Shown piece after piece: positions 1,398 through 43,278 of a DNA stretch of 43,688 nt. Both the position numbers and the translations under genes were made by a program. The notes under the pieces are model-generated. The model had not been told where the DNA came from, did not search any database, and was given only the letters and a program-made list of their open reading frames with translations. The stretch comes from a virus (lineage: Duplodnaviria; Heunggongvirae; Uroviricota; Caudoviricetes), in IMG/VR virus record IMGVR_UViG_2526164631_000038, one strand, 5' to 3'. Numbering within the stretch: position 1 is the stretch's first letter; every line of letters starts with the position of its first letter.

Positions 1398-1952
1398 TCA
1401 TTTATCTCCGACTGGAAACTTCTTATACAAAGTCGATACGCCAACATCATAAATGATCGCCACCTTCTGGCGAGGAACTCCTGATGCAATTAATCGTCCG
1501 GCCTGTGCCCATTGTTCTGGTGTAAGTTTGGGACGTCGTCCACCAATTCGTCCCTGTGCGCGAGCAGCTTCCAGTCCTGCTTTTGTTCGTTCAACAATCA
1601 GTTCTCGTTCCATTTCAGCCAGGGCCCCCATCACATGAAAGAAAAAACGCCCCATCGGTGTGCTGGTATCAATAGCATCCGTCAGGCTGCGAAAATTAAC
1701 GCCACGTTCGCGCAACTCCTCAACCAGAATGACCAGATGCCGCATACTACGCCCCAGCCGATCCAGCTTCCAGACAACCAGAGTGTCACCTGCCGATAAT
1801 GTCCTGAGCAGTTTTTTCAGTCCCGGCCTTTCGGACTTTGTACCGCTTATCTTGTCTTCAAAAATCAGCTCGCATCCTGCACAGTTCAACGCATTACGTT
1901 GTAGATCGGTATTCTGGTCATTTGTTGATACGCGTACATAGCCAATAAGCAT
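1398..1952 (-). CDS. site-specific DNA invertase, serine recombinase of the Pin/Gin/Hin family
   Basis: Translation from MLIGYVRVSTNDQ... with catalytic-Ser motif and C-terminal HTH; 184 aa from the ATG at 1952, which has a GGGAGA Shine-Dalgarno. The longer 1988 start lacks one. Confidence 0.9.
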   Translation of the reverse strand: MLIGYVRVSTNDQNTDLQRNALNCAGCELIFEDKISGTKSERPGLKKLLRTLSAGDTLVVWKLDRLGRSMRHLVILVEELRERGVNFRSLTDAIDTSTPMGRFFFHVMGALAEMERELIVERTKAGLEAARAQGRIGGRRPKLTPEQWAQAGRLIASGVPRQKVAIIYDVGVSTLYKKFPVGDK

Positions 1953-27905: not shown

Positions 27906-28061
27906 TTACTTCTCAGATTCGTAGTCCACGAAGACAGCAACCTCCGTCTGGCCGGTTCGGATTCGTACCTCGCAGAGGTCTTTCCTCGTTACCAGTGCCG
28001 TCACTATGACGGTTAAACAGATGACGATAAGGGCGATTAACATCGCCTTTTGCTGCTTCAT
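27906..28061 (-). CDS. hok: Hok/Gef-family membrane toxin
   Basis: 51 aa MKQQKAMLIALIVICLTVIVTALVTRKDLCEVRIRTGQTEVAVFVDYESEK, nearly identical to HokD/RelF as recalled. Confidence 0.85.
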   Translation of the reverse strand: MKQQKAMLIALIVICLTVIVTALVTRKDLCEVRIRTGQTEVAVFVDYESEK

Positions 28062-28618
28062 AGCCTGCTTCTCCTTGCCTTTCGGCACGTAAGAGGCTAA
28101 CCTACATTTGTGAGACATAGATTGGGCCTCAGATTAATGTTAAGCGTCTTGTAGGACGCGTAATGTTAACTGGGGCTTTTCTCTATCTGCCTTTTGGTGT
28201 TCATGCCTGAGGCAGATAGCCTCAAGCACCCGCAGCAATTCTAACTATCCAATAGATCAATGCCAACTTCTTTTCCTGCAACATCTCTCATCATAAGTGA
28301 CCAAAATTCATCCAATCAGCACAAAAGAAACATTTAAAGCGTGAATGCTACCGAACGTTCATTTCAATTACATCGTTTTGATTTTTAACAGTTTTTACCT
28401 CAACAAATCAAATGGCATTAGCATTCATCATGGAAGAAAGACTGATAAAAATGATCATTTTCAATGACTTATGATCACACCGGGTATTGCCAAGTCATTC
28501 CTTTTACGCCAGGATACCCACAAGTGAGTAGTCGAGGAGAGTTTGCCAATTTTTGCGATATAAATTTCAATGTCCGAAGAACCATTAATTGTTAATTGAT
28601 TCTGTATAAGGTATTAAC

Positions 28619-29716
28619 ATGACAATTTCATATATTCCTATTCTGAAAGCGAAACGTTCTGAGTTATCAGCTTTATCGCAGCTATCCATTGAAAAGAAAT
28701 CAAAAATTTTGCCATTACTCGAAATTGAACCAGTGCCAATTGACCCTGATTCAGGTATTGCCTTAAAGAGTTATAACGAGACTCTTATAGAGTTCGGAAA
28801 GAAAGTCTCAAAATCTTGCTCAGATATGCAAGGTGTTTATATTGATGGATTATTAATTGAAGAGCATTTTATTTCTCCTGAAGATCATTACCCTATAATA
28901 AATGCGGTTAATCAAGTTAGAGATATGGGGATAAGAGTTATTCCTGTCAGTTCACCAACTCGCCCATCTAACTATAAAGGAGCGATTGATGAATTAATGC
29001 AGAATGAAATATGCTTGAGATTAACCACGTTAGATCTGGTTAACCCACAATTAATAACGCATTACATTAATCATCTGGGAATTCCTTTATCAAATATTGA
29101 TATAATTATTGACTTAAGAGATGAGTTAACCGAGGATAAACTTAATTCCGGCGAACTATATACTTTGGCAATGGGATTGATAAACAATCTGGCGCACCTC
29201 AATGAATACAGAAAAGTGATTCTTTCTGGGGGTTCATTTCCTACAGATCTCAGTGATATTTCTGTTGGTCTATATTCTCAACCTCGAATCGAGTGGATTT
29301 TATGGCAGAGTTTAATGAATAGAAAAGAACTTGCCAGAAATGTGATTTATAGTGATTATGGAGTACAGCACCCCGACTTTAATAGGCTTTCGACGCGATT
29401 CCCTAGCGTATCTGCCAGCGTCAGATACTCTGGAGATAATGACTTTTGGGTATTTCGAGGAAGAGTAGCTAATCGCTTTGGTTATGAACAATATGGTAAA
29501 CATAGTGAGGATATTCTTGCTCATCGAGAATATTCAGGGCCTACATTCTGTGCGGGAGATAGAGACATAGAATATTATGCAAACGAGTATCAAGCCTACA
29601 AAGCCAATCCCTCTGGTAACTATAAATTTGGTAGCCCAGAGGTATGGCGTAGGATTGGGCAAAACCATCACATAACTAAGGTTGTTGAGCAACTCGCCAC
29701 TCTTTACGGGCTTTAA
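28619..29716 (+). CDS. uncharacterised 365-aa protein, Beta-protein / sce7725-like; first gene of a candidate defence pair
   Basis: Translation MTISYIPILKAKRSELSAL... recalled as the N-terminal signature of the Beta_protein / sce7725 family (recalled, uncertain); AT-rich; 500-bp leader; 3' end overlaps the convergent partner. Confidence 0.75.
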   Translation: MTISYIPILKAKRSELSALSQLSIEKKSKILPLLEIEPVPIDPDSGIALKSYNETLIEFGKKVSKSCSDMQGVYIDGLLIEEHFISPEDHYPIINAVNQVRDMGIRVIPVSSPTRPSNYKGAIDELMQNEICLRLTTLDLVNPQLITHYINHLGIPLSNIDIIIDLRDELTEDKLNSGELYTLAMGLINNLAHLNEYRKVILSGGSFPTDLSDISVGLYSQPRIEWILWQSLMNRKELARNVIYSDYGVQHPDFNRLSTRFPSVSASVRYSGDNDFWVFRGRVANRFGYEQYGKHSEDILAHREYSGPTFCAGDRDIEYYANEYQAYKANPSGNYKFGSPEVWRRIGQNHHITKVVEQLATLYGL

Positions 29717-30254
29717 GTTTAACTCGAACAGCTTCACGAAGCTCGCCAACATCCATACTATTGGCGAGTTTTGACCATAAGACGCGTTTAGGTTTATTTT
29801 TCAAATTCTGTAGCTCCCCTACATCACTTAATAGGGAAAGCAATTCATCTTTCCAAAGAAGCATTGTTAAGGAAAGTTTGTCCACTTGTGGATTCAACTT
29901 GCTAGTTCGAATTGTTTTTAAATGGATACCTTGCCGTGCACCTTGCGTAACTTGCTTTATCCCCCACCATGATGGAACTATGCTTAAAGCATCATAAAGA
30001 TGGCAATCAGAGACAACCAACGTTACTTTATCCATCACTGATGAGTAATGTTGCACCTGCGCTGGTAATCTGAGCAAGTTATCACTTTTGCTCTTCAACT
30101 CATAACCATGTATAAGCCCATTGATCACTGCTATATCAGCTCTGCTAGCCCCCAGATTCATCGTAAACTCATCAATGATTAGGGTGTCAGGATCTTTATG
30201 ATGATCTCTCAAAATCTTGGCATGCACAGCCTTTCTTACATCAATGTCTCTCAT
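29676..30254 (-). CDS. uncharacterised 192-aa protein, sce7726-like with PD-(D/E)xK-like motif; second gene of the candidate defence pair
   Basis: LIIDEFTMNLGASRADIAVINGLIHGYELKSKSD has the D...(D/E)xK arrangement of restriction-endonuclease-fold nucleases; convergent with and overlapping the Beta-like gene. Confidence 0.75.
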   Translation of the reverse strand: MRDIDVRKAVHAKILRDHHKDPDTLIIDEFTMNLGASRADIAVINGLIHGYELKSKSDNLLRLPAQVQHYSSVMDKVTLVVSDCHLYDALSIVPSWWGIKQVTQGARQGIHLKTIRTSKLNPQVDKLSLTMLLWKDELLSLLSDVGELQNLKNKPKRVLWSKLANSMDVGELREAVRVKLKARKEWRVAQQP

Positions 30255-34465: not shown

Positions 34466-34497
34466 AATTTTAAACACACCTTGTGTTATATGGTCAA
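34466..34497 (-). promoter_or_regulatory. pR-like promoter with embedded operator
   Basis: Minus strand TTGACC-17-TTTAAA upstream of cro; palindrome AACACACCTTGTGTT (34473..34487) lies in the spacer. Confidence 0.55.
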
Positions 34498-34544
34498 GCT
34501 GTTTTGTGTTTTATATAAATCACGATTCGTGATACAAGGATGCA

Positions 34545-34964
34545 ATGGAAAAAGAAAACGAAAAAATTGCCGCTAGTAGGCTCAATGACAAAATTGCAAT
34601 GCGTCTTAAAGAGCGCAGGCAGAAGCTTGGTTTATCTCAAGGAAAACTTGCTGAAATCTGCGGATGGACGCAATCGCGTATAGGTAACTATGAGGCGGGC
34701 AGCAGAAATGTTGGAGTGCATGACGCTGTCGTATTGGGAAAGGCACTTGGCATATCTCCTCCTGAGCTCCTATTTGGAGAACAGGAATCTTCTGAATTGT
34801 GGTTAAATGAATCCCAACGAAAACTTCTTGAGTTGTTTAACCAGCTACCGGGCTCAGAACAACAACGAATGATTGAGCTATTTGAAGTCCGGCTAAAAGA
34901 AATCGATGAGTATGTAGAAAAATATTTGAGAGGCAGGCTTAAAGATAATCCCCCACCGGAGTAA
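34545..34964 (+). CDS. cI: CI-like repressor (XRE HTH, short form without a recognisable autocleavage domain)
   Basis: 139 aa; HTH LGLSQGKLAEICGWTQSRIGNYE; no Ser/Lys peptidase-type C-terminal domain; divergent from cro. Confidence 0.7.
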   Translation: MEKENEKIAASRLNDKIAMRLKERRQKLGLSQGKLAEICGWTQSRIGNYEAGSRNVGVHDAVVLGKALGISPPELLFGEQESSELWLNESQRKLLELFNQLPGSEQQRMIELFEVRLKEIDEYVEKYLRGRLKDNPPPE

Positions 34965-34994: not shown

Positions 34995-35019
34995 AGCCCG
35001 CTATCAGCGGGCTTTTTTG
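34995..35019 (+). terminator. rho-independent terminator after the repressor gene
   Basis: AGCCCGCTATCAGCGGGCT hairpin followed by TTTTTTG. Confidence 0.75.
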
Positions 35020-35047
35020 TACCATCATCATATGACACTCACCACAA

Positions 35048-35088
35048 AACACATATCGTGTTGACATAAGAAAACGCATTGTGTTTAA
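35048..35088 (+). promoter_or_regulatory. pL-like promoter with operator
   Basis: TTGACA-17-TTTAAT; palindrome AACACATATCGTGTT (35048..35062) overlaps the -35 and shares its AACAC/GTGTT arms with the pR operator. Confidence 0.55.
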
Positions 35089-35263
35089 TAAGCATATCCA
35101 AACAACGCCCCACCAGAGAACGGCAGGACAATACCTCGAGTTATCCAGCCACTGAACAGGGCTAAGTAGCCAGCCTGAGGCATACGAACATGACGGCAGT
35201 TGTTGATTGATACAAAGCGCAGTAGATAAAACGTTCCGCCACCCGGCGTTAAGGGGAAAAAAG

Positions 35264-35482
35264 ATGGTTGGTGAAGATCTGGTTGTTATTAACGGTCAAT
35301 TGTGCAGCAAAGATGTGGCAGCCATGCTTATTAGCAAGGTTCTTCCAACTGTGCTGGATGTCATTGCAGAAAAAGTAAAGGCTGGTCGTCCAGACAAGGA
35401 AGTTGAAGAGGCGGCAAAAACAGTTGTTCATGCCGCTACAGAAGCAATTATTTTGAAGAGCCTAGTTTCGCCCAAGCCTTAA
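35264..35482 (+). CDS. small early-left protein (72 aa)
   Basis: ATG preceded by AAGGGGA; first ORF after the pL-like promoter. Confidence 0.4.
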   Translation: MVGEDLVVINGQLCSKDVAAMLISKVLPTVLDVIAEKVKAGRPDKEVEEAAKTVVHAATEAIILKSLVSPKP

Positions 35483-35642
35483 GTGAATCGGCGCTTTTTT
35501 TAGCATCACGTTCATTGAGTAGTGACAAAAACTCATTCTCAGCATTCTCGATTTCCGAGAAAAATTCTTGATGAGTTGTTTCTCGCTGCGATCTGATGCT
35601 GAAAGCTAAAGCAAGTAGCCAGGCTTTGTCTTTATTATCCAT
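35448..35642 (-). CDS. small protein (64 aa) antisense to the early-left operon
   Basis: ORF with weak Shine-Dalgarno; convergent with and overlapping the preceding gene. Confidence 0.3.
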   Translation of the reverse strand: MDNKDKAWLLALAFSIRSQRETTHQEFFSEIENAENEFLSLLNERDAKKSADSLKAWAKLGSSK

Positions 35643-36037
35643 CGGAATACCTTATTACTGGTTGTGTGAGAACTCCAGTATACCACCGAGCCTGAAGTGG
35701 TAAAAAGACAGGCGCACAACACGAAGGCGCATTTCCGGTATTCATAAAGAGTCGGTCTTGTCTGTTAAATTTAAATGGTGGGAGTGCGCCTCCGGTTGTA
35801 AATAACGACATTGCTATGTGTAGTCTTTGGCGGCATCAGTTCTACTCCGTGGCTGCCCTGTCGCCCCTTTTTAAAGTGAATTTTGTGATGCGGTGAATGC
35901 GGCTAAGCGCACGCGGCACAGTTAAAAGCATCAGTGTTATGGGTGGATTATCCGGCGTTAATTGTTAACTGGTTAACGTCACCTGGAGGCACCAGGCACC
36001 GCATCGACAAAATTCATTTGTAAAAATGGAGATAATT

Positions 36038-36259
36038 ATGATTGCTCATCACTTCGGAACTGATGAAATACCACGTCAGTGTGTGACCCCTGGCGATTAT
36101 GTTCTTCATGAAGGTCGGACATATATCGCCTCGGCAAACAATATTAAAAAGCGAAAACTTTATATTCGTAGCCTGACTACAAAAACATGCATTTCTGACT
36201 GCATGATTAAAGTCTTCCTCGGTCGTGATGGTTTACCTGTAAAGGCGGAGTCATGGTAA
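36038..36259 (+). CDS. small early protein, 73 aa; candidate KilR-like cell-division inhibitor by size and position
   Basis: GGAG Shine-Dalgarno before the ATG at 36038; same length and position as kilR in Rac. Sequence identity not verified. Confidence 0.4.
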
Positions 36260-36502
36260 TGACTAAGAAATAAAATGTGCTTATCACCTTTGCAATAAAG
36301 AAATTGAAGAAAGCAAAATCATTACAAGACCACTTCATTTCATGCGTGGAGTTATACCAACGACGGAAATGAAAAAATATTGTAGTGAAAGTTGTGCCGA
36401 AAAAGACCAGATGGCACACGAACTTTAATTAACTGACTATTCGAAACTGAATTTATGCCAGCAATGGCAGGGATTCGCTCAACCTTAATTAAGGAGAAAA
36501 AC

Positions 36503-36778
36503 ATGATTACCAGTTATGAAGCCACTGTTGTAACTACTGATGACATTGTTCACGAGGTTAATCTGGAAGGAAAGCGTATTGGCTACGTGATTAAAACAGA
36601 AAATAAAGAAACCCCATTCACTGTGGTTGATATCGACGGTCCATCAGGCAACGTTAAAACACTTAACGAAGGCGTCAAAAAAATGTGCCTGGTGCATATC
36701 GGAAAGAATCTGCCCGCAGAAAAAAAAGCCGGATTTCTGGCAACTCTGATTGCAATGAAATTAAAAGGTGAAATCTGA
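36503..36778 (+). CDS. small early protein, 91 aa (RacC-like position)
   Basis: AAGGAGAAAAAC Shine-Dalgarno; immediately upstream of the RecE-like gene. Confidence 0.45.
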   Translation: MITSYEATVVTTDDIVHEVNLEGKRIGYVIKTENKETPFTVVDIDGPSGNVKTLNEGVKKMCLVHIGKNLPAEKKAGFLATLIAMKLKGEI

Positions 36779-36878
36779 AAGAAATAGCCTGCGTATGGCG
36801 CAGGCTATGAACAGTGTGTATCCGGCAAGATTATTCACTGAACAAACGAATTTTAATCTGAGTTGAGGTTAAAAAACA

Positions 36879-39800
36879 ATGAGCACCGATAAACAAGTTT
36901 ACCCACTGTATTACGAAGCAAAAAATGACAAAGTAAGAAAACGTCTCGGTATTAAAGGCGGTTTTTACTGGGCTGAAGCGAAAAAATTATCCATTGCCAT
37001 CTCCCGTGGTGCTGTTGCAATTGACGATGCTGGCTACGATGAAGATGACTTCAAAAAACCTGTTCGCGTCAATTTGCCCATTGTTGATGACCTCCCGCCA
37101 GAAGGCGTATTTGATACGGAATTCTGCAACCGTTACGAAAAAGGCGGGGAAGATGGCATCACAATGGTATTTATCGCGCCCTCCCCCTCTGCGCAGGGCA
37201 AACCAGCCAGCACTGACAACACCAATGTTAATGGCGAAGACATGACGGAGATTGAGGAGAATATGCTACTTCCGATTTCTGGCCAGGAGCTGCCCATTCG
37301 CTGGCTTGCTCAACACGGCAGCGAAAAACCAGTAACGCACGTTTCACGCGACGAACTCCAGGCATTACACATTGCACGGGCTGAAGAACTACCGGCTGTT
37401 ACTGCCCTGGCTATTTCGCATAAAACCAGTCTGCTCGACTCGCTGGAGATTCGCGACCTCCACAAACTGGTTCGTGACACTGACAAAGTTTTCCCTAATC
37501 CTGGTAATTCAGACCTGGGACTAATAACTGCTTTTTTCGAAGCATACCTGGACGCTGACTACACTGATCGGGGTCTGCTGACAAAAGAGTGGATGAAAGG
37601 AAATCGTGTTTCACGCATCACCCGCACGGCTTCCGGTGCTAATGCTGGCGGTGGGAACAAAACCGATCGCAATCCGAATTTAGTACACACCCTCGACACA
37701 CTGGATGTGGAGATTGCAGCAGCCACACTTCCGATGGATTTTAATATTTATGAAATTCCGGGCAGCGTTTATCGTCGCGCAAAAGAAGTAGTCCTGAACA
37801 AAGAAAGTCCGTTCAAAGAATGGTCCGCAGCACTTCGTGCAACCCCGGGTATTCTGGACTATTCCCGCGCCGCTATTTTTGCACTTATCCGAAGCGCACA
37901 CCCTGAATTTTATCACTACCCGGGACGCCTTCAGGGGTATATCAACGCCTATTTGACGGAAACTGATCACGAGAACCCCAGCAAGGAAACTCTCACAGCT
38001 GCCCGGCATACGCCGGAAAAAGATATCCTGGAAGAAATTAACCGCGAGGTGGTTACTGAGCGTGAAACAGAAGAAGAAAAACCACAACCATCTGACGCAA
38101 TGGCAGGTGAACAGGCAACAACTGAAACAATGGAACCGGATACAACTGAACATGGCCAGAACGCGCAGTCGCTGGATGCTCAGTCGCAGGTGAGTTCCGC
38201 TAACCAAGTAAAAGTCACCGCTGACGAAGTAAACAAAATTATGCAGGCAGCCAATATCAGCCAGCCTGACGCCGATAAGTTACTTGCTGTATCGCGTGGT
38301 GAATTTGTTGAGGGGATTAGCGACCCTAATGATCCGAAATGGGTCAAGGGGATCCAGACTCGCGATTCTGTGAACCAGAACCAGCATGAATCGGAACGGA
38401 ACGACCAAAAAGCGGAACAAAACAGCCCAAATGCGTTACAAAACGAGCCAGAAACGAAACAATCCGAACCAGTAGCGCAACAGGAACCGGAAAAAGTCTT
38501 CACCGCCTGCGGTCAGAGCGGTGGCGGCAACTGCCCTGATTGTGGCGCGGTGATGGGCGACGCAACATACCAGGAAACATTCGATGAAGAGAATCAGGTT
38601 GAAGTTCAGGAAAATGATCCGGAGGAAATGGAAGGTGCTGAACATCCGCACAAGGAGAACGCTGGCAGCAATCCGCATTGCGATTGCAGTGATGAAGCTG
38701 GTGAAGCGACAGCACCTGTAGTAACTGAAATCATGTGGCCGTCATATTTCGAGCCTGGCCGCTATGAAAACCTCCCGAACGAGGTTTATCACTCCGCCAA
38801 CGGAATAAGCAGCACAATGCTGAAGGATGCCCGCATCAGCCTGATGTATTACCACGGACGGCACATTGCCGGAACTATTCTGGGCGAGGAAAGTGATGCA
38901 TTGCTGCGTGGGCGGATTATTCACAGCTATGTTCTGGAAACGGATAAATTCGCTGATGAGTATGCCATTCCGGTACCGGTTCCTGAATATGTGGTTACTA
39001 CTTCTAACGAACTGATCGCCATCATTAAAAAACACAATGCCAGTCTGCCAGCACTGATGACACCAGAGCAGATGAAAGAGTGGATCGAAAGCTACAACAG
39101 CACTCTTATACAGCCACTGTCGGTAAGTGCCGGGGCCGAAGAAACAGGCATCCTTTACGGTTCGCTTCCGGAGGAATTCCGGCGTATTCCTGAGGGGGAA
39201 AAACACACAGCATCAGCAATGAAAGCCTGTATTAAAGAATACAACGCAAGCCTCCCTCCTCTGCTGAAAGCCAGTGGAACACGGGAGCAGCTCCTGGAGC
39301 AAATTGAAACTGTAGATCCAGAACTGGCAAAAAAAGAACGTGCTAAATCTTTGCCTTACAACATCAGTGGCACAAAAGAGCAATTAACCGAAATCGCCCG
39401 GAAAATTCGCCCGGAACTGGTGACACTGGAGGACTGGCAAAAATGCCAGCAAGAAGAAAACGCCGGGAAAACGTTTATCAGTCCGGATATGTATGAACAG
39501 GCAAAAAATATTCACGCAGCACTGCAAAACAATACTGATGCAGCAAGGCTACTCAACCACCCGGATCGCAAATCTGAAATCAGCTATTTCGGGTTTGATG
39601 AAGAAACCGGGCTGGAAATCAGGGTCCGTCCTGATATCGAAATCCGGCTGCCATACGAAAGCATTTGCGCCGACGTGAAGTCAGTCAGCCTCGGTTATGT
39701 GCGACAGGAACGACTGAAAGATCGCCTGCACCGTGAAATTATTGAGCGTGATTATCACCTCAGCGCAGCAATGTATTGCGATGTGGCAAACCTGGACAAA

Positions 39801-40022
39801 TTTTTCTGGATCTTCGTCAACAAAGATGCTGGCTATCACTGGGTGGCCGTCGTGGAAGCCTCGCAGGAACTCCTGGAACTTGGTCGACAGGAATATCGCC
39901 GGACGCTACGACAGATAAACGAAGCTCTGGAGACAAACAACTGGCCAGCACCGATTACCGAAAGTTATACCGACGAATTAAACGACTTTGATCTTCGTCG
40001 TCTTGAAGCACTGAGCATCTGA
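36879..40022 (+). CDS. recE: RecE-like exonuclease VIII (PD-(D/E)xK C-terminal domain) with long acidic N-terminal/middle region
   Basis: 1047-aa ORF; C-terminal ...IRVRPDIEIRLPYESICADVKSVS... nuclease-like motif; followed by a RecT-family gene as in Rac. Confidence 0.65.
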   Translation: MSTDKQVYPLYYEAKNDKVRKRLGIKGGFYWAEAKKLSIAISRGAVAIDDAGYDEDDFKKPVRVNLPIVDDLPPEGVFDTEFCNRYEKGGEDGITMVFIAPSPSAQGKPASTDNTNVNGEDMTEIEENMLLPISGQELPIRWLAQHGSEKPVTHVSRDELQALHIARAEELPAVTALAISHKTSLLDSLEIRDLHKLVRDTDKVFPNPGNSDLGLITAFFEAYLDADYTDRGLLTKEWMKGNRVSRITRTASGANAGGGNKTDRNPNLVHTLDTLDVEIAAATLPMDFNIYEIPGSVYRRAKEVVLNKESPFKEWSAALRATPGILDYSRAAIFALIRSAHPEFYHYPGRLQGYINAYLTETDHENPSKETLTAARHTPEKDILEEINREVVTERETEEEKPQPSDAMAGEQATTETMEPDTTEHGQNAQSLDAQSQVSSANQVKVTADEVNKIMQAANISQPDADKLLAVSRGEFVEGISDPNDPKWVKGIQTRDSVNQNQHESERNDQKAEQNSPNALQNEPETKQSEPVAQQEPEKVFTACGQSGGGNCPDCGAVMGDATYQETFDEENQVEVQENDPEEMEGAEHPHKENAGSNPHCDCSDEAGEATAPVVTEIMWPSYFEPGRYENLPNEVYHSANGISSTMLKDARISLMYYHGRHIAGTILGEESDALLRGRIIHSYVLETDKFADEYAIPVPVPEYVVTTSNELIAIIKKHNASLPALMTPEQMKEWIESYNSTLIQPLSVSAGAEETGILYGSLPEEFRRIPEGEKHTASAMKACIKEYNASLPPLLKASGTREQLLEQIETVDPELAKKERAKSLPYNISGTKEQLTEIARKIRPELVTLEDWQKCQQEENAGKTFISPDMYEQAKNIHAALQNNTDAARLLNHPDRKSEISYFGFDEETGLEIRVRPDIEIRLPYESICADVKSVSLGYVRQERLKDRLHREIIERDYHLSAAMYCDVANLDKFFWIFVNKDAGYHWVAVVEASQELLELGRQEYRRTLRQINEALETNNWPAPITESYTDELNDFDLRRLEALSI

Positions 40023-40033
40023 GGAAGGACACA

Positions 40034-41086
40034 ATGAACGAATTAACTCAACAAGAAAATATTAACTCTAATGTTGCGGTTTTCAGCCCTCAGTCCCTGG
40101 CTGCAATTCAGACATTTTCCCAGGTAATGGCTTCCGGCATGGCTACTGTACCGGAACACCTCCGGGGAAATCCATCAGACTGCATGGCCATCACCATGCA
40201 GGCGATGCAGTGGCAAATGAACCCTTACGCAGTAGCTCAGAAAACTTTCGTTGTGAATGGTGTGCTCGGATATGAAGCGCAACTGGTTAATGCCGTAATC
40301 AGTACTCGTGGGCCGCTAACCGGGCGTATTGAATATGACTGGTTCGGGCCGTGGGAAAAAATTATCGGGAAATTTGAAATTAGGAAGAACGACAAGGGGA
40401 AAGAATATCGTGTACCTGGCTGGAAGCTGGCCGATGAAAACGGGATCGGAGTTCGCGTCCAGGCAACACTACGCGGAGAGAGCAAGCCACGCGTACTGGA
40501 GTTACTTCTGGCGCAGGCCAGAACACGTAACTCAACGTTATGGGCCGATGATCCTCGCCAGCAGCTTGCCTATCTGGCACTGAAACGCTGGGCGCGCCTT
40601 TATTGCCCTGAAGTGATTCTTGGAGTGTACACCCGGGACGAACTGGACGAACCACAGGAAAAAATCATTAATCCGGTTCAGGAACATAAAAATACATCCG
40701 CCTGCCGTGCGGAACGTGAAACAACAATTATTGAGCAGGATGCCGGGGAAAACTGGATCAGTGCTTTCCGTGAACGTATTGAGCAGGCACAAAGCACCGG
40801 AGAAACAACATCACTTCGCCAGGAAGTGGAAGATCATAAAAATACTCTTGGCGCTCTCTACACAGAACTTAAAGGAAAAGTGGTTCAGCGTCATCACCGT
40901 CTCAATGCTATTGCCCGTATTGAGACGATGATAAATGACCTGCCTTCATCAGGTGATCCAGAAGCAGAACAAAAATTTATTGCTCTGGAAAATACGCTGA
41001 ATGCTGCACGACCACATCTGGGAGAATTATATGAGGCGTATAAAACGACACTGACAGATATGAAACCAGAATATATCGGCTCCTGA
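40034..41086 (+). CDS. recT: RecT/Red-beta family single-strand annealing protein
   Basis: 350 aa; ...QQLAYLALKRWARLYCPEVILGV... resembles the conserved Bet/RecT core; operon partner of the exonuclease. Confidence 0.7.
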   Translation: MNELTQQENINSNVAVFSPQSLAAIQTFSQVMASGMATVPEHLRGNPSDCMAITMQAMQWQMNPYAVAQKTFVVNGVLGYEAQLVNAVISTRGPLTGRIEYDWFGPWEKIIGKFEIRKNDKGKEYRVPGWKLADENGIGVRVQATLRGESKPRVLELLLAQARTRNSTLWADDPRQQLAYLALKRWARLYCPEVILGVYTRDELDEPQEKIINPVQEHKNTSACRAERETTIIEQDAGENWISAFRERIEQAQSTGETTSLRQEVEDHKNTLGALYTELKGKVVQRHHRLNAIARIETMINDLPSSGDPEAEQKFIALENTLNAARPHLGELYEAYKTTLTDMKPEYIGS

Positions 41087-41149
41087 TATTTACTATGGCG
41101 GTGTAGCCTCACCGCCATAACAAAACTTTATTTTATGAGAGAAAAGACA

Positions 41150-41344
41150 ATGCGGTATGAAAAAGTCAAACCATGTCCGTTTTGTGGTTGTCCATCAGTA
41201 ACGGTGAAAGCCATTTCAGGATATTACCGCGCAAAGTGTAACGGATGCGAATCCCGAACCGGCTATAGTGGAAGTGAAAAAGAAGCACTCGAAAGATGGA
41301 ATAAACGAACTACTGGAAATAATAATGGAGGTGTTCATGTATAA
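41150..41344 (+). CDS. lar: Lar-family restriction alleviation protein
   Basis: 64 aa from MRYEKVKPCPFCGCP...CNGCESR, a zinc-ribbon of the Lar/RalR type; Rac-like position. Confidence 0.65.
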   Translation: MRYEKVKPCPFCGCPSVTVKAISGYYRAKCNGCESRTGYSGSEKEALERWNKRTTGNNNGGVHV

Positions 41345-41525
41345 AATTACTGCCACTATTGAAAAGGAAGGTGGCACTCCTACTAACTGGACAAGATATT
41401 CAAAATCTAAATTAACGAAATCAGAATGCGAAAAAATGCTCTCAGGGAAAAAAGAAGCAGGCGTTTCCAGAGAGCAGAAAGTAAAGCTGATAAATTTTAA
41501 TTGCGAGAAACTTCTGTCCTCGTGA
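41337..41525 (+). CDS. small hypothetical protein (62 aa)
   Basis: ATG preceded by GGAGG; between lar and xis. Confidence 0.4.
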   Translation: MYKITATIEKEGGTPTNWTRYSKSKLTKSECEKMLSGKKEAGVSREQKVKLINFNCEKLLSS

Positions 41526-43075: not shown

Positions 43076-43086
43076 TAAATACAATT

Positions 43087-43188
43087 AAAAAAGACCGAAT
43101 ACGATTCCTGTATTCGGTCCAGGGAAATGGCTCTTGGGAGAGAGCCGTGCGCTAAAAGTTGGCATTAATGCAGGCTTAGTTGCCTTGC
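43087..43188 (-). ncRNA. sdsR: SdsR (RyeB) small RNA
   Basis: Minus-strand sequence GCAAGGCAACTAAGCCTGCATTAATGCCAACTTTTAGCGCACGGCTCTCTCCCAAGAGCCATTTCCCTGGACCGAATACAGGAATCGTATTCGGTCTTTTTT matches SdsR as recalled, including the terminator hairpin; CTATTCT -10 just upstream. Confidence 0.85.
43093..43117. repeat. attR: right copy of the attachment-site repeat, forming the present 3' end of sdsR
   Basis: GACCGAATACGATTCCTGTATTCG matches the attL copy at 1075..1098 with two mismatches. Confidence 0.75.
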
Positions 43189-43278
43189 CCTTTAAGAATA
43201 GATGACGACGCCAGGTTTTCCAGTTTGCGTGCAAAATGGTCAATAAAAAGCGTGGTGGTCATCAGCTGAAATGTTAAA

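Follow-up and report, generated by a model that had tools for sequence, protein, structure and literature searches.

The stretch of DNA analysed here, which we call the window, is the 43,688-nucleotide (nt) virus record IMGVR_UViG_2526164631_000038 (Caudoviricetes), and the subject of this text is the cluster of small genes at 35264..36778, between a pL-like promoter and recE. We consider it highly probable, from gene content and order, that this interval opens an early-left (pL) operon under repressor control, belonging to a complete Rac-like lambdoid prophage of Escherichia coli. The four small open reading frames (ORFs) of 64–91 amino acids (aa) that had originally been noticed are present at 35264..35482 (plus strand, 72 aa), 35448..35642 (minus strand, 64 aa), 36038..36259 (plus strand, 73 aa) and 36503..36778 (plus strand, 91 aa). 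The original prediction likened the 73-aa and 91-aa ORFs to kilR and racC of the Rac prophage by size and position, and homology searches bear this out: similarity to Rac proteins of K-12 was found for KilR (95% identity), RacC (97%) and YdaE (70%), and the order upstream of recE is identical.

The 73-aa gene kilR (36038..36259, plus strand) encodes an FtsZ/MreB-directed cell-division inhibitor as judged by NCBIfam, phrog_294 (Kil) and the RefSeq label kilR. Its product matches the NCBIfam FtsZ inhibitor model PRK11354 over residues 1–73 of 73 with 160.9 bits (cut-off 92), so that the cell-division inhibitor suspected in the cluster is there, and its ATG at 36038 has a GGAG 5 nt upstream. Expression of K-12 KilR causes filamentation that is suppressible by FtsZ (PMC12482147, PMC5793797), and the protein disrupts Z-rings and, at high dose, MreB (PMC12482147), while K-12 kilR expression is restrained by NusG-dependent termination (PMC5793797). 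Given its 95% identity, the KilR described here would be expected to cause FtsZ-suppressible filamentation as well. The 91-aa gene racC (36503..36778, plus strand) lies between ydaE and recE, has an AAGGAG 8 nt upstream of its ATG at 36503, and its product matches NCBIfam PRK09790 with 202.8 bits (cut-off 171) as well as phrog_4778. Sequence searches of the PDB with YdaE and RacC gave nothing meaningful. Residues 17–62 of RacC did reach a summed E value of 2e-5 against PDB 6xi1 ("Flagellin hook IN motif family"), but this value is the sum over four repeat matches with about 8 bits apiece and lacks credibility; the likeness probably reflects a shared beta-strand pattern and not homology.

The promoter and its surroundings fit the early-left assignment. 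A helix-turn-helix repressor gene (34545..34964) lies upstream of pL, with its terminator (34995..35013, found by a promoter and terminator scan) just upstream of the promoter, and a cro-like/YdaT pair lies upstream on the strand opposite to the repressor. The pL-like promoter that had been placed ahead of the cluster is found at 35047..35089 (plus strand), with a −35 element TTGACA (35061-35066), a 17-nt spacer and a −10 element TTTAAT (35084-35089). It is overlapped by two copies of an AAACAC..GTGTT repeat (35047-35062 and 35070-85), which we regard as putative operators; the same repeat occurs in the intergenic region between the repressor and the cro-like gene (34472-34487 and 34504-34515) with an identical spacing of 23 nt. 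The prophage itself is full-length, with tail, head and lysis genes, and adjoins ryeA/ryeB. The nut-like element that had been thought possible in the non-coding stretch was not found: between pL and kilR (35090-36040) there is no boxA (CGCTCTTA, at most one mismatch) and no boxB (at most two mismatches), and the product of the first pL gene has no Pfam match, is not arginine-rich and is not N-like.

A query of 1901 bases around the locus is 99.9% identical to the complete genomes of O55:H7 DEC5E, O111:H2 12A and FDAARGOS_1059, where the RefSeq labels read hypothetical (three times), kilR, YdaE family and recE. In our survey set of 5426 complete E. coli genomes, parts of this query are present in 4642 and the entire arrangement in 29 only. 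A separate observation concerns the pL leader, where a 32-codon hydrophobic ORF (35085..35183, minus strand; MPQAGYLALFSGWITRGIVLPFSGGALFGYAY) runs antisense, and a hairpin resembling a terminator lies at 35130..35106. In a Salmonella relative (L012) its ATG and first eight residues are kept, the remainder is divergent and the length is 28 aa; a small membrane peptide, an antisense RNA or chance are the candidate readings.

The stretch 35643..36025 had been described as GC-rich and non-coding. It does lack a conserved ORF, but with 47.0% GC against 48.5% for the whole window it is not GC-rich, and exceeds only its AT-rich neighbours (34–42%). It contains three elements, namely the promoter of the antisense gene, a small RNA (sRNA) of the DicF family and the structured leader of kilR, so that the suggestion of an sRNA in this stretch held up twice over, with a DicF match above the Rfam gathering score and an STnc100-like structure with covariation support. 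The KilS/DicF-type sRNA gene (35778..35872, plus strand) is placed by the Rfam match, by the mapping of kilS and dicF, and by its terminator. Rfam DicF (RF00039) matches 35815..35866 with 55.3 bits (gathering score 48) over model positions 1–52 of 52; the terminator stem is formed by 35829-35835 and 35859-35865, followed by a T-run at 35868-35872, and was also found by the terminator scan. K-12 kilS (b4833), from the homologous place upstream of kilR, maps to 35778..35872 of the window. The sRNA is a mosaic, in which the 5′ 64 nt are KilS-like (about 95% identity) and the 3′ half resembles the DicF of Qin. The KilS-like 5′ part occurs in 1493 of the 5426 genomes and the full-length mosaic in 86; the Rac prophage of K-12 has no Rfam DicF match. 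Two further Rfam matches in the region are chance, one to RprA (30 bits against 70) and one to the Trp leader (27.5 bits against 41), the latter sitting on the terminator of the repressor gene.

DicF of Qin is a discrete, Hfq-dependent RNA that represses translation of ftsZ (PMC5069750, PMC10448788), and does so through base pairing of its 3′ end (PMC5069750). RNAduplex was restricted to the relevant regions, because over the full lengths it returned duplexes of unrealistic length. In these computations the 3′ half of the sRNA binds ftsZ −29..+3 with a predicted −32.7 kcal/mol, a value reached by 0.2% of shuffles; K-12 DicF gave −27.9 kcal/mol in the same computation, and the 3′ part of K-12 KilS could not be distinguished from shuffles, 13% of which reach its value. 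The first 13 nt of DicF, its published xylR-pairing 5′ end, are not conserved in the window. KilS has been described as an Hfq-associated sRNA from the 5′ UTR (untranslated region) of kilR, detected by RIL-seq and verified by northern blot, possibly with its own promoter (PMC8175672). We suggest that KilS and DicF represent two versions of the same sRNA locus, a recognition that would be modestly new; the KilS paper (PMC8175672) makes no mention of such a relation. The window presents a variant of Rac in which a DicF-type sRNA with intact complementarity to ftsZ lies directly upstream of kilR, whereas K-12 KilS has lost this complementarity. As the DicF-type sRNA and KilR share one locus, an RNA and a protein inhibitor of division are paired here as they are in Qin.

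Between kilR and racC, the original prediction saw a zinc-ribbon-like ORF without a start. Direct reading of the stop-to-stop frame 36267..36428 confirms that it encodes a C-x4-C ... C-x3-C peptide with a first in-frame ATG at 36342, and neither ATG, GTG nor TTG precedes that position. The lack of an early start is therefore real, but this is no unusual gene: alignment to DEC5E and to phage vB_EcoS-683R6 identifies it as ydaE (36259..36428, plus strand), the gene of a zinc-binding protein, with a one-base deletion. The product of the frame is 70% identical to residues 4–56 of K-12 YdaE, and the ATG of ydaE at 36259 overlaps the kilR stop codon as TAATG. The sole difference to DEC5E and 683R6 in this region is at 36268-36270, where the relatives have AAGAAAATAAAA and the window has AAGAAATAAAA; a run of four A is contracted to three, the frame of the ATG now stops at 36271-36273, and no intact ydaE frame opens from 36259 in the window copy. 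It is because of this one missing A that the ORF looks start-less. When the A is restored, the ATG at 36259 opens a normal 56-aa YdaE that scores 88.1 bits against NF041288 YdaE_coli (cut-off 35; the family models are NF041288 and PF27493) and 32.6 bits against Pfam RPAP2_Rtr1, just below the gathering score of 33. What had been a puzzling ORF is thus resolved as a one-base lesion in a known gene.

The deletion is seen in none of the 147 complete E. coli genomes that carry the 61-mer concerned. In the alignment to DEC5E of about 40 kb there is only one other single-base indel, the loss of an A from the A-run at 43087, which falls in the chromosomal sRNA gene sraC/ryeA (43083..43226; the SraC/RyeA-SdsR/RyeB locus) near the prophage integrase. 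This deletion is private too (0 of 214 complete E. coli genomes with its 61-mer) and is apparent, too, as a gap in the match to the Rfam consensus. Two private contractions of A-runs in otherwise identical surroundings suggest homopolymer miscalls, and we find a homopolymer sequencing error slightly likelier as the origin of the ydaE deletion than a private inactivating mutation. A genuine deletion is nevertheless quite conceivable, in which case ydaE would be a pseudogene without function, yielding no more than a peptide of four residues if read from 36259, or a C-terminal fragment of 28 residues if translation began at the ATG of 36342. Contraction of homopolymers is the commonest real type of indel as well, the window represents a distinct lineage with 546 substitutions across 40 kb to its closest complete relative, and ydaE has no known essential role; on the other hand, the 1.9 kb around the deletion are otherwise identical to three genomes, none of the 147 shares it, and a sole companion indel that is again an A-run loss, in a conserved core sRNA gene, is the pattern typical of homopolymer miscalls. 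Users should check both contractions against the reads. Intact expression of the start-less frame, whether through programmed ribosomal frameshifting or non-canonical initiation, is extremely improbable, for although the shift lies in an A-rich run (ACU AAG AAA UAA AAU) and A-runs can be slippery, neither an X XXY YYZ heptamer nor a structure downstream is present at the site, the frame lacks all three start codons ahead of 36342, and all 147 relatives have a plain in-frame ydaE and hence no conserved recoding signal, which is why we rejected programmed frameshifting.

The first gene of the pL operon (35264..35482, plus strand) encodes an uncharacterised 72-aa protein (phrog_23495, 3.6e-50), which in DEC5E is the hypothetical protein WP_000232637.1. 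Its homologues form 24 clusters among 5.8 billion proteins and come from Escherichia, Salmonella, Klebsiella and Raoultella. The gene has a ratio of non-synonymous to synonymous changes (dN/dS) of 0.34–0.51, with variable columns distributed 25/27/48 over the codon positions, and the AlphaFold2 model is a beta-hairpin with two long helices (pLDDT 80), for which a fold search of the PDB gave no match better than E = 2. YdfC of Qin, which is of equal length and likewise lies upstream of dicF, was considered as a homologue and shows no similarity. Directly 5′ of the Shine-Dalgarno sequence of this gene we note a GC-rich hairpin (35235..35263; CGCC-ACCC-GGCG), which is kept even in two loci (L006 and L007) that are otherwise unrelated in their upstream leader.

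The antisense gene (35448..35642, minus strand; phrog_22868) for the 64-aa protein is convergent to the 72-aa gene and shares 35 bp with the 3′ end of the latter. On the evidence of its sequence, we hold that this ORF is a genuine gene, coding for protein and equipped with a conserved promoter of its own, in keeping with the antisense gene that had been marked in the cluster. Its frame is the only one free of stops in six lineages, at a constant 195 bp, down to about 50% protein identity and without indels; it keeps an ATG or GTG start and an AAGG Shine-Dalgarno sequence, its dN/dS is 0.55–0.66, and over the 159 nt that are not overlapped by the 72-aa gene its variable columns fall 26/21/42 by codon position. 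The predicted sigma-70-type promoter (35677..35704, minus strand; TTTACC, 16 nt, TGgTATACT, with an extended −10), which was found by the promoter scan, and the leader behind it are the best-conserved part of the intergenic alignment of six loci; the −10 element and the leader GGAGTTCTCACACAACCAG are kept in loci of Escherichia, Salmonella, Klebsiella and Raoultella. Two apparent hairpins on the pL strand at 35657-35700 were also considered, but they are not kept in Salmonella and we read the conservation there as that of the antisense promoter and not of an RNA structure. The 64-aa family is very small, with 8 clusters at 90% identity (of 5.8 billion proteins) and about 4 at 50%, one match in 50,697 phage records, and nothing beyond the same tiny family of about four clusters when a profile of the alignment was searched against 1.84 billion representatives. 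The AlphaFold2 model has two helices (pLDDT 75), with no match better than E = 2 in a fold search of BFVD.

Alternatively, the 64-aa ORF might not be translated, and its promoter might serve to make a regulatory antisense RNA, acting against pL transcription or silencing the 72-aa gene. Transcription from this promoter would run head-on to pL, conservation is higher in the promoter and leader than in the ORF, the ORF has a dN/dS of only 0.55–0.66 and is unannotated in some records, and the family is very narrow. We nevertheless think this unlikely in view of the enrichment of changes at third codon positions in the part free of overlap, and of a constant length, a single open frame, a start codon and a Shine-Dalgarno sequence maintained over six lineages; moreover, a role as antisense RNA and a coding role could coexist. 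Returning to the 64-aa ORF as a protein-coding gene, it occupies the slot of sieB and has its own promoter, and we would therefore guess, if weakly, that the lysogen expresses it without need of pL.

The 64-aa gene is always paired with the 72-aa gene, and together they form a convergent module of 379 bp that is always located between the repressor and the structured leader, without indels in prophages of Escherichia, Salmonella, Klebsiella and Raoultella or in Klebsiella phage ST405-OXA48phi1.2. Tentatively, and as a possibility that we regard as rather doubtful, the pair may be an unrecognised two-gene module of Rac-like prophages in which the 64-aa gene is transcribed in the lysogen from its strongly conserved extended −10 promoter, head-on to pL, with a role in superinfection exclusion or defence, as a toxin-antidote-like pair, or as a brake on the early-left operon. 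Found in four genera, with a promoter of its own and no known relative, the pair is a cheap candidate for a small functional screen. It is in this conserved module that the residual novelty of the locus would lie, everything else having already been described for Rac, Qin and Stx phages.

Downstream of the sRNA, the leader of kilR (35874..36019, plus strand) folds into an STnc100-like structure, as indicated by a sub-threshold Rfam match and by covariation. A closing helix of 22 bp (35874-35895 with 35997-36019) encloses hairpins at 35899-35914, 35954-35980 and 35982-35996, and ends 10 nt before the Shine-Dalgarno sequence of kilR. The Rfam match runs end to end over model positions 1–206 (E = 7e-08 in a 2-kb search). 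RNAalifold applied to nine homologues gave 45 pairs, and in 15 of these there are compensatory double changes. In a count of our own, the share of paired cells was 98.3%, compared with 33–42% when the partners were slid, and double changes were seen in 15 pairs, compared with 0–4 in these slid controls. STnc100 is a known family of prophage sRNAs, akin to PasD and overlapping with EcOnc27 downstream of stx2B (bioRxiv 10.64898/2026.05.13.724894; PMC12711010; PMC12370729). The element is also kept in related loci without DicF (Klebsiella, Raoultella) and in one (L008) where no kil follows. In the operon of the latter (1584..1772, minus strand), the kil slot holds PhD/ParE, followed by isrK and C4 antisense RNAs (67.5 and 79.3 bits) that precede a Phage_ASH/pRha antirepressor-like gene; from this cargo, the slot downstream of the STnc100-like leader appears as a hot spot for exchangeable toxic or regulatory genes.

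The structured RNA at 35874-36019 could instead be a cis-acting processive antiterminator, comparable in principle to put of HK022, by which RNA polymerase would escape Rho/NusG-dependent termination in kilR-recET, and would then be neither an sRNA nor a module for processing by RNase III. The region from pL to kilR has no N-like gene and no nut site, the element is retained in early-left leaders irrespective of which gene comes next (kil, ydaE or PhD/ParE), the P1 ban operon has part of it ahead of tciA, and K-12 kilR is silenced via NusG-dependent termination (PMC5793797). However, members of the family have been reported as discrete Hfq-bound sRNAs (STnc100/EcOnc27, PMC12711010; PasD relatives, bioRxiv 10.64898/2026.05.13.724894), and a perfect helix of 22 bp is a better substrate for RNase III than ligand for RNA polymerase, for which reasons we judge an antiterminator improbable.

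For the operon as a whole, we regard the following course as the most likely. De-repression would allow transcription from pL (35061-35089) through the 72-aa gene and the DicF-family sRNA gene with its intrinsic terminator, and then through the STnc100-type leader of about 150 nt, kilR, ydaE, racC and recE-recT, with ydaE translationally coupled to kilR through TAATG. The sRNA could arise by termination at 35872, by being processed out of the operon transcript in the manner of Qin DicF, or from its own start, as K-12 Rac KilS may do. By analogy with the K-12 work, its 3′ half would pair with the ribosome-binding site of ftsZ and lower ftsZ translation, and transcripts that read through would yield KilR, which would block FtsZ rings and, at higher dose, act on MreB. 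Between them, sRNA and KilR would thus make two attacks on cell division, like dicF-dicB in Qin. The 22-bp helix of the leader is probably a substrate for RNase III that would separate the sRNA from the kilR message, and its cleavage may also free an STnc100-like RNA. That RNase III processes full-length dicBF mRNA to a 72-nt DicF is reported in PMC5069750, citing Faubladier 1990. The 3′ end of this 72-nt form is 19 nt past that of the 53-nt form and corresponds to 35886 in the window, within the 5′ strand of the helix, and it is for this reason that we propose the helix as the RNase III site.

Several points weigh against this picture. The best-documented RNase III cut in Qin, described in 2023, is upstream of DicF and gives a species of 190 nt (PMC10448788), and the downstream cut goes back to a single older report by way of the paper that cites it. 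Gene identities and order, the sRNA family, the terminator, the covarying structure and the ftsZ complementarity were obtained here by homology and computation, whereas promoters, processing sites and targets are predicted or transferred from K-12. The duplex energies with ftsZ, including the −32.7 kcal/mol of the window sRNA, leave out target accessibility and Hfq, and the match of the leader to Rfam STnc100 (RF02076; 35856..36045) scores 44.5 bits, below the gathering score of 47. The dN/dS of the 64-aa gene speaks for moderate constraint only, and Pfam, NCBIfam, PADLOC, PDB and fold searches gave no functional clue for the 72-aa and 64-aa proteins.

Anti-restriction had been the other function proposed for the cluster. 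No such gene lies within 35264..36778, and the PADLOC defence models had no match among the five proteins of the interval; ralR/lar is found at 41135..41344, downstream of recT and about 4.4 kb further on, and together with the antitoxin RNA RalA it occupies 41135..41521, outside the interval. RalA RNA (41343..41521, 223.8 bits), which forms a type I toxin-antitoxin pair with ralR, is one of two such RNAs in the window, the other being sok RNA (28056..28231, 121.7 bits) with hokD. Between hokD and the replication genes there is a convergent pair (28619..29716, plus strand; 29676..30254, minus strand), labelled "beta family protein" and "sce7726 family protein" in DEC5E; the pair resembles a moron and could be a defence-type insertion. 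A perfect palindromic hairpin of 10 bp (ATAGCCTGCG-TATGG-CGCAGGCTAT; 36785..36809) is found between racC and recE; it lacks a plus-strand T-run and may be an mRNA-stabilising or processing element. The recombination genes are long, with recE (36879..40022) encoding 1047 aa and recT (40034..41086) 350 aa, against 866 and 269 aa in K-12 Rac; the additional recE sequence is acidic and of low complexity, and is located in the N-terminal and middle part. We point out that the RefSeq annotation of this region in DEC5E is without the two sRNA elements.

One of the closest known systems is the early-left operon of the cryptic K-12 prophage Rac (racR / ydaG-ydaF-[sieB antisense]-kilS-kilR-ydaE-racC-recE-recT-ralR). 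The order from the sRNA to recE is shared, KilR, RacC and YdaE are related at the identities given above, the TAATG overlap of kilR and ydaE is the same, and in either operon an antisense gene separates the repressor from the sRNA. The window differs in that the ydaG-ydaF-sieB slot is taken by the 72-aa/64-aa pair, with the 64-aa gene in the position of sieB, in that the 3′ half of the sRNA is of the DicF and not the KilS type, in that recE is the longer and ydaE is frameshifted, and in that the prophage is full-length and lies beside ryeA/ryeB, not at the K-12 Rac site.

The dicBF operon of Qin (ydfABC-dicF-dicB) shares with the window an sRNA that has an intrinsic terminator and whose 3′ half is complementary to ftsZ, a near-identical structured leader after the sRNA, and a small division-inhibiting protein thereafter; it is likewise repressed by a cI-like repressor (PMC10448788). 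Its inhibitor DicB and the KilR of the window, however, belong to unrelated families, and the two operons also differ in the first 13 nt of DicF, in the genes upstream and around the upstream RNase III site. With the STnc100/PasD/EcOnc27 family (RF02076), the leader has in common a multi-hairpin architecture closed by a long helix and a location in prophages, but it is 2.5 bits below the gathering score, and it is the 5′ leader of kilR in an early operon and not a free-standing gene or the copy downstream of stx2B (PMC12711010, PMC12370729).

Finally, in the ban operon of phage P1 a "dicF-like region" (68791..68892), which is a curated feature, lies ahead of tRNAs and tciA. P1 (L013, 70080..70107) contains an exact match of 28 nt to the structured leader, with only part of the structure present, and P7 (L014, 72453..72568) and D6 contain, likewise in the ban operon, a match of 115 nt at 85% identity. 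These matches stand before a gene annotated for possible division inhibition, and in P1 and P7 they are ahead of tciA/terB. While the type of phage and the operon differ from those of the window, the dicF-like region and the partial leader of the P1 and P7 ban operon together suggest that a module of sRNA plus leader is shared between lambdoid and P1-like phages.

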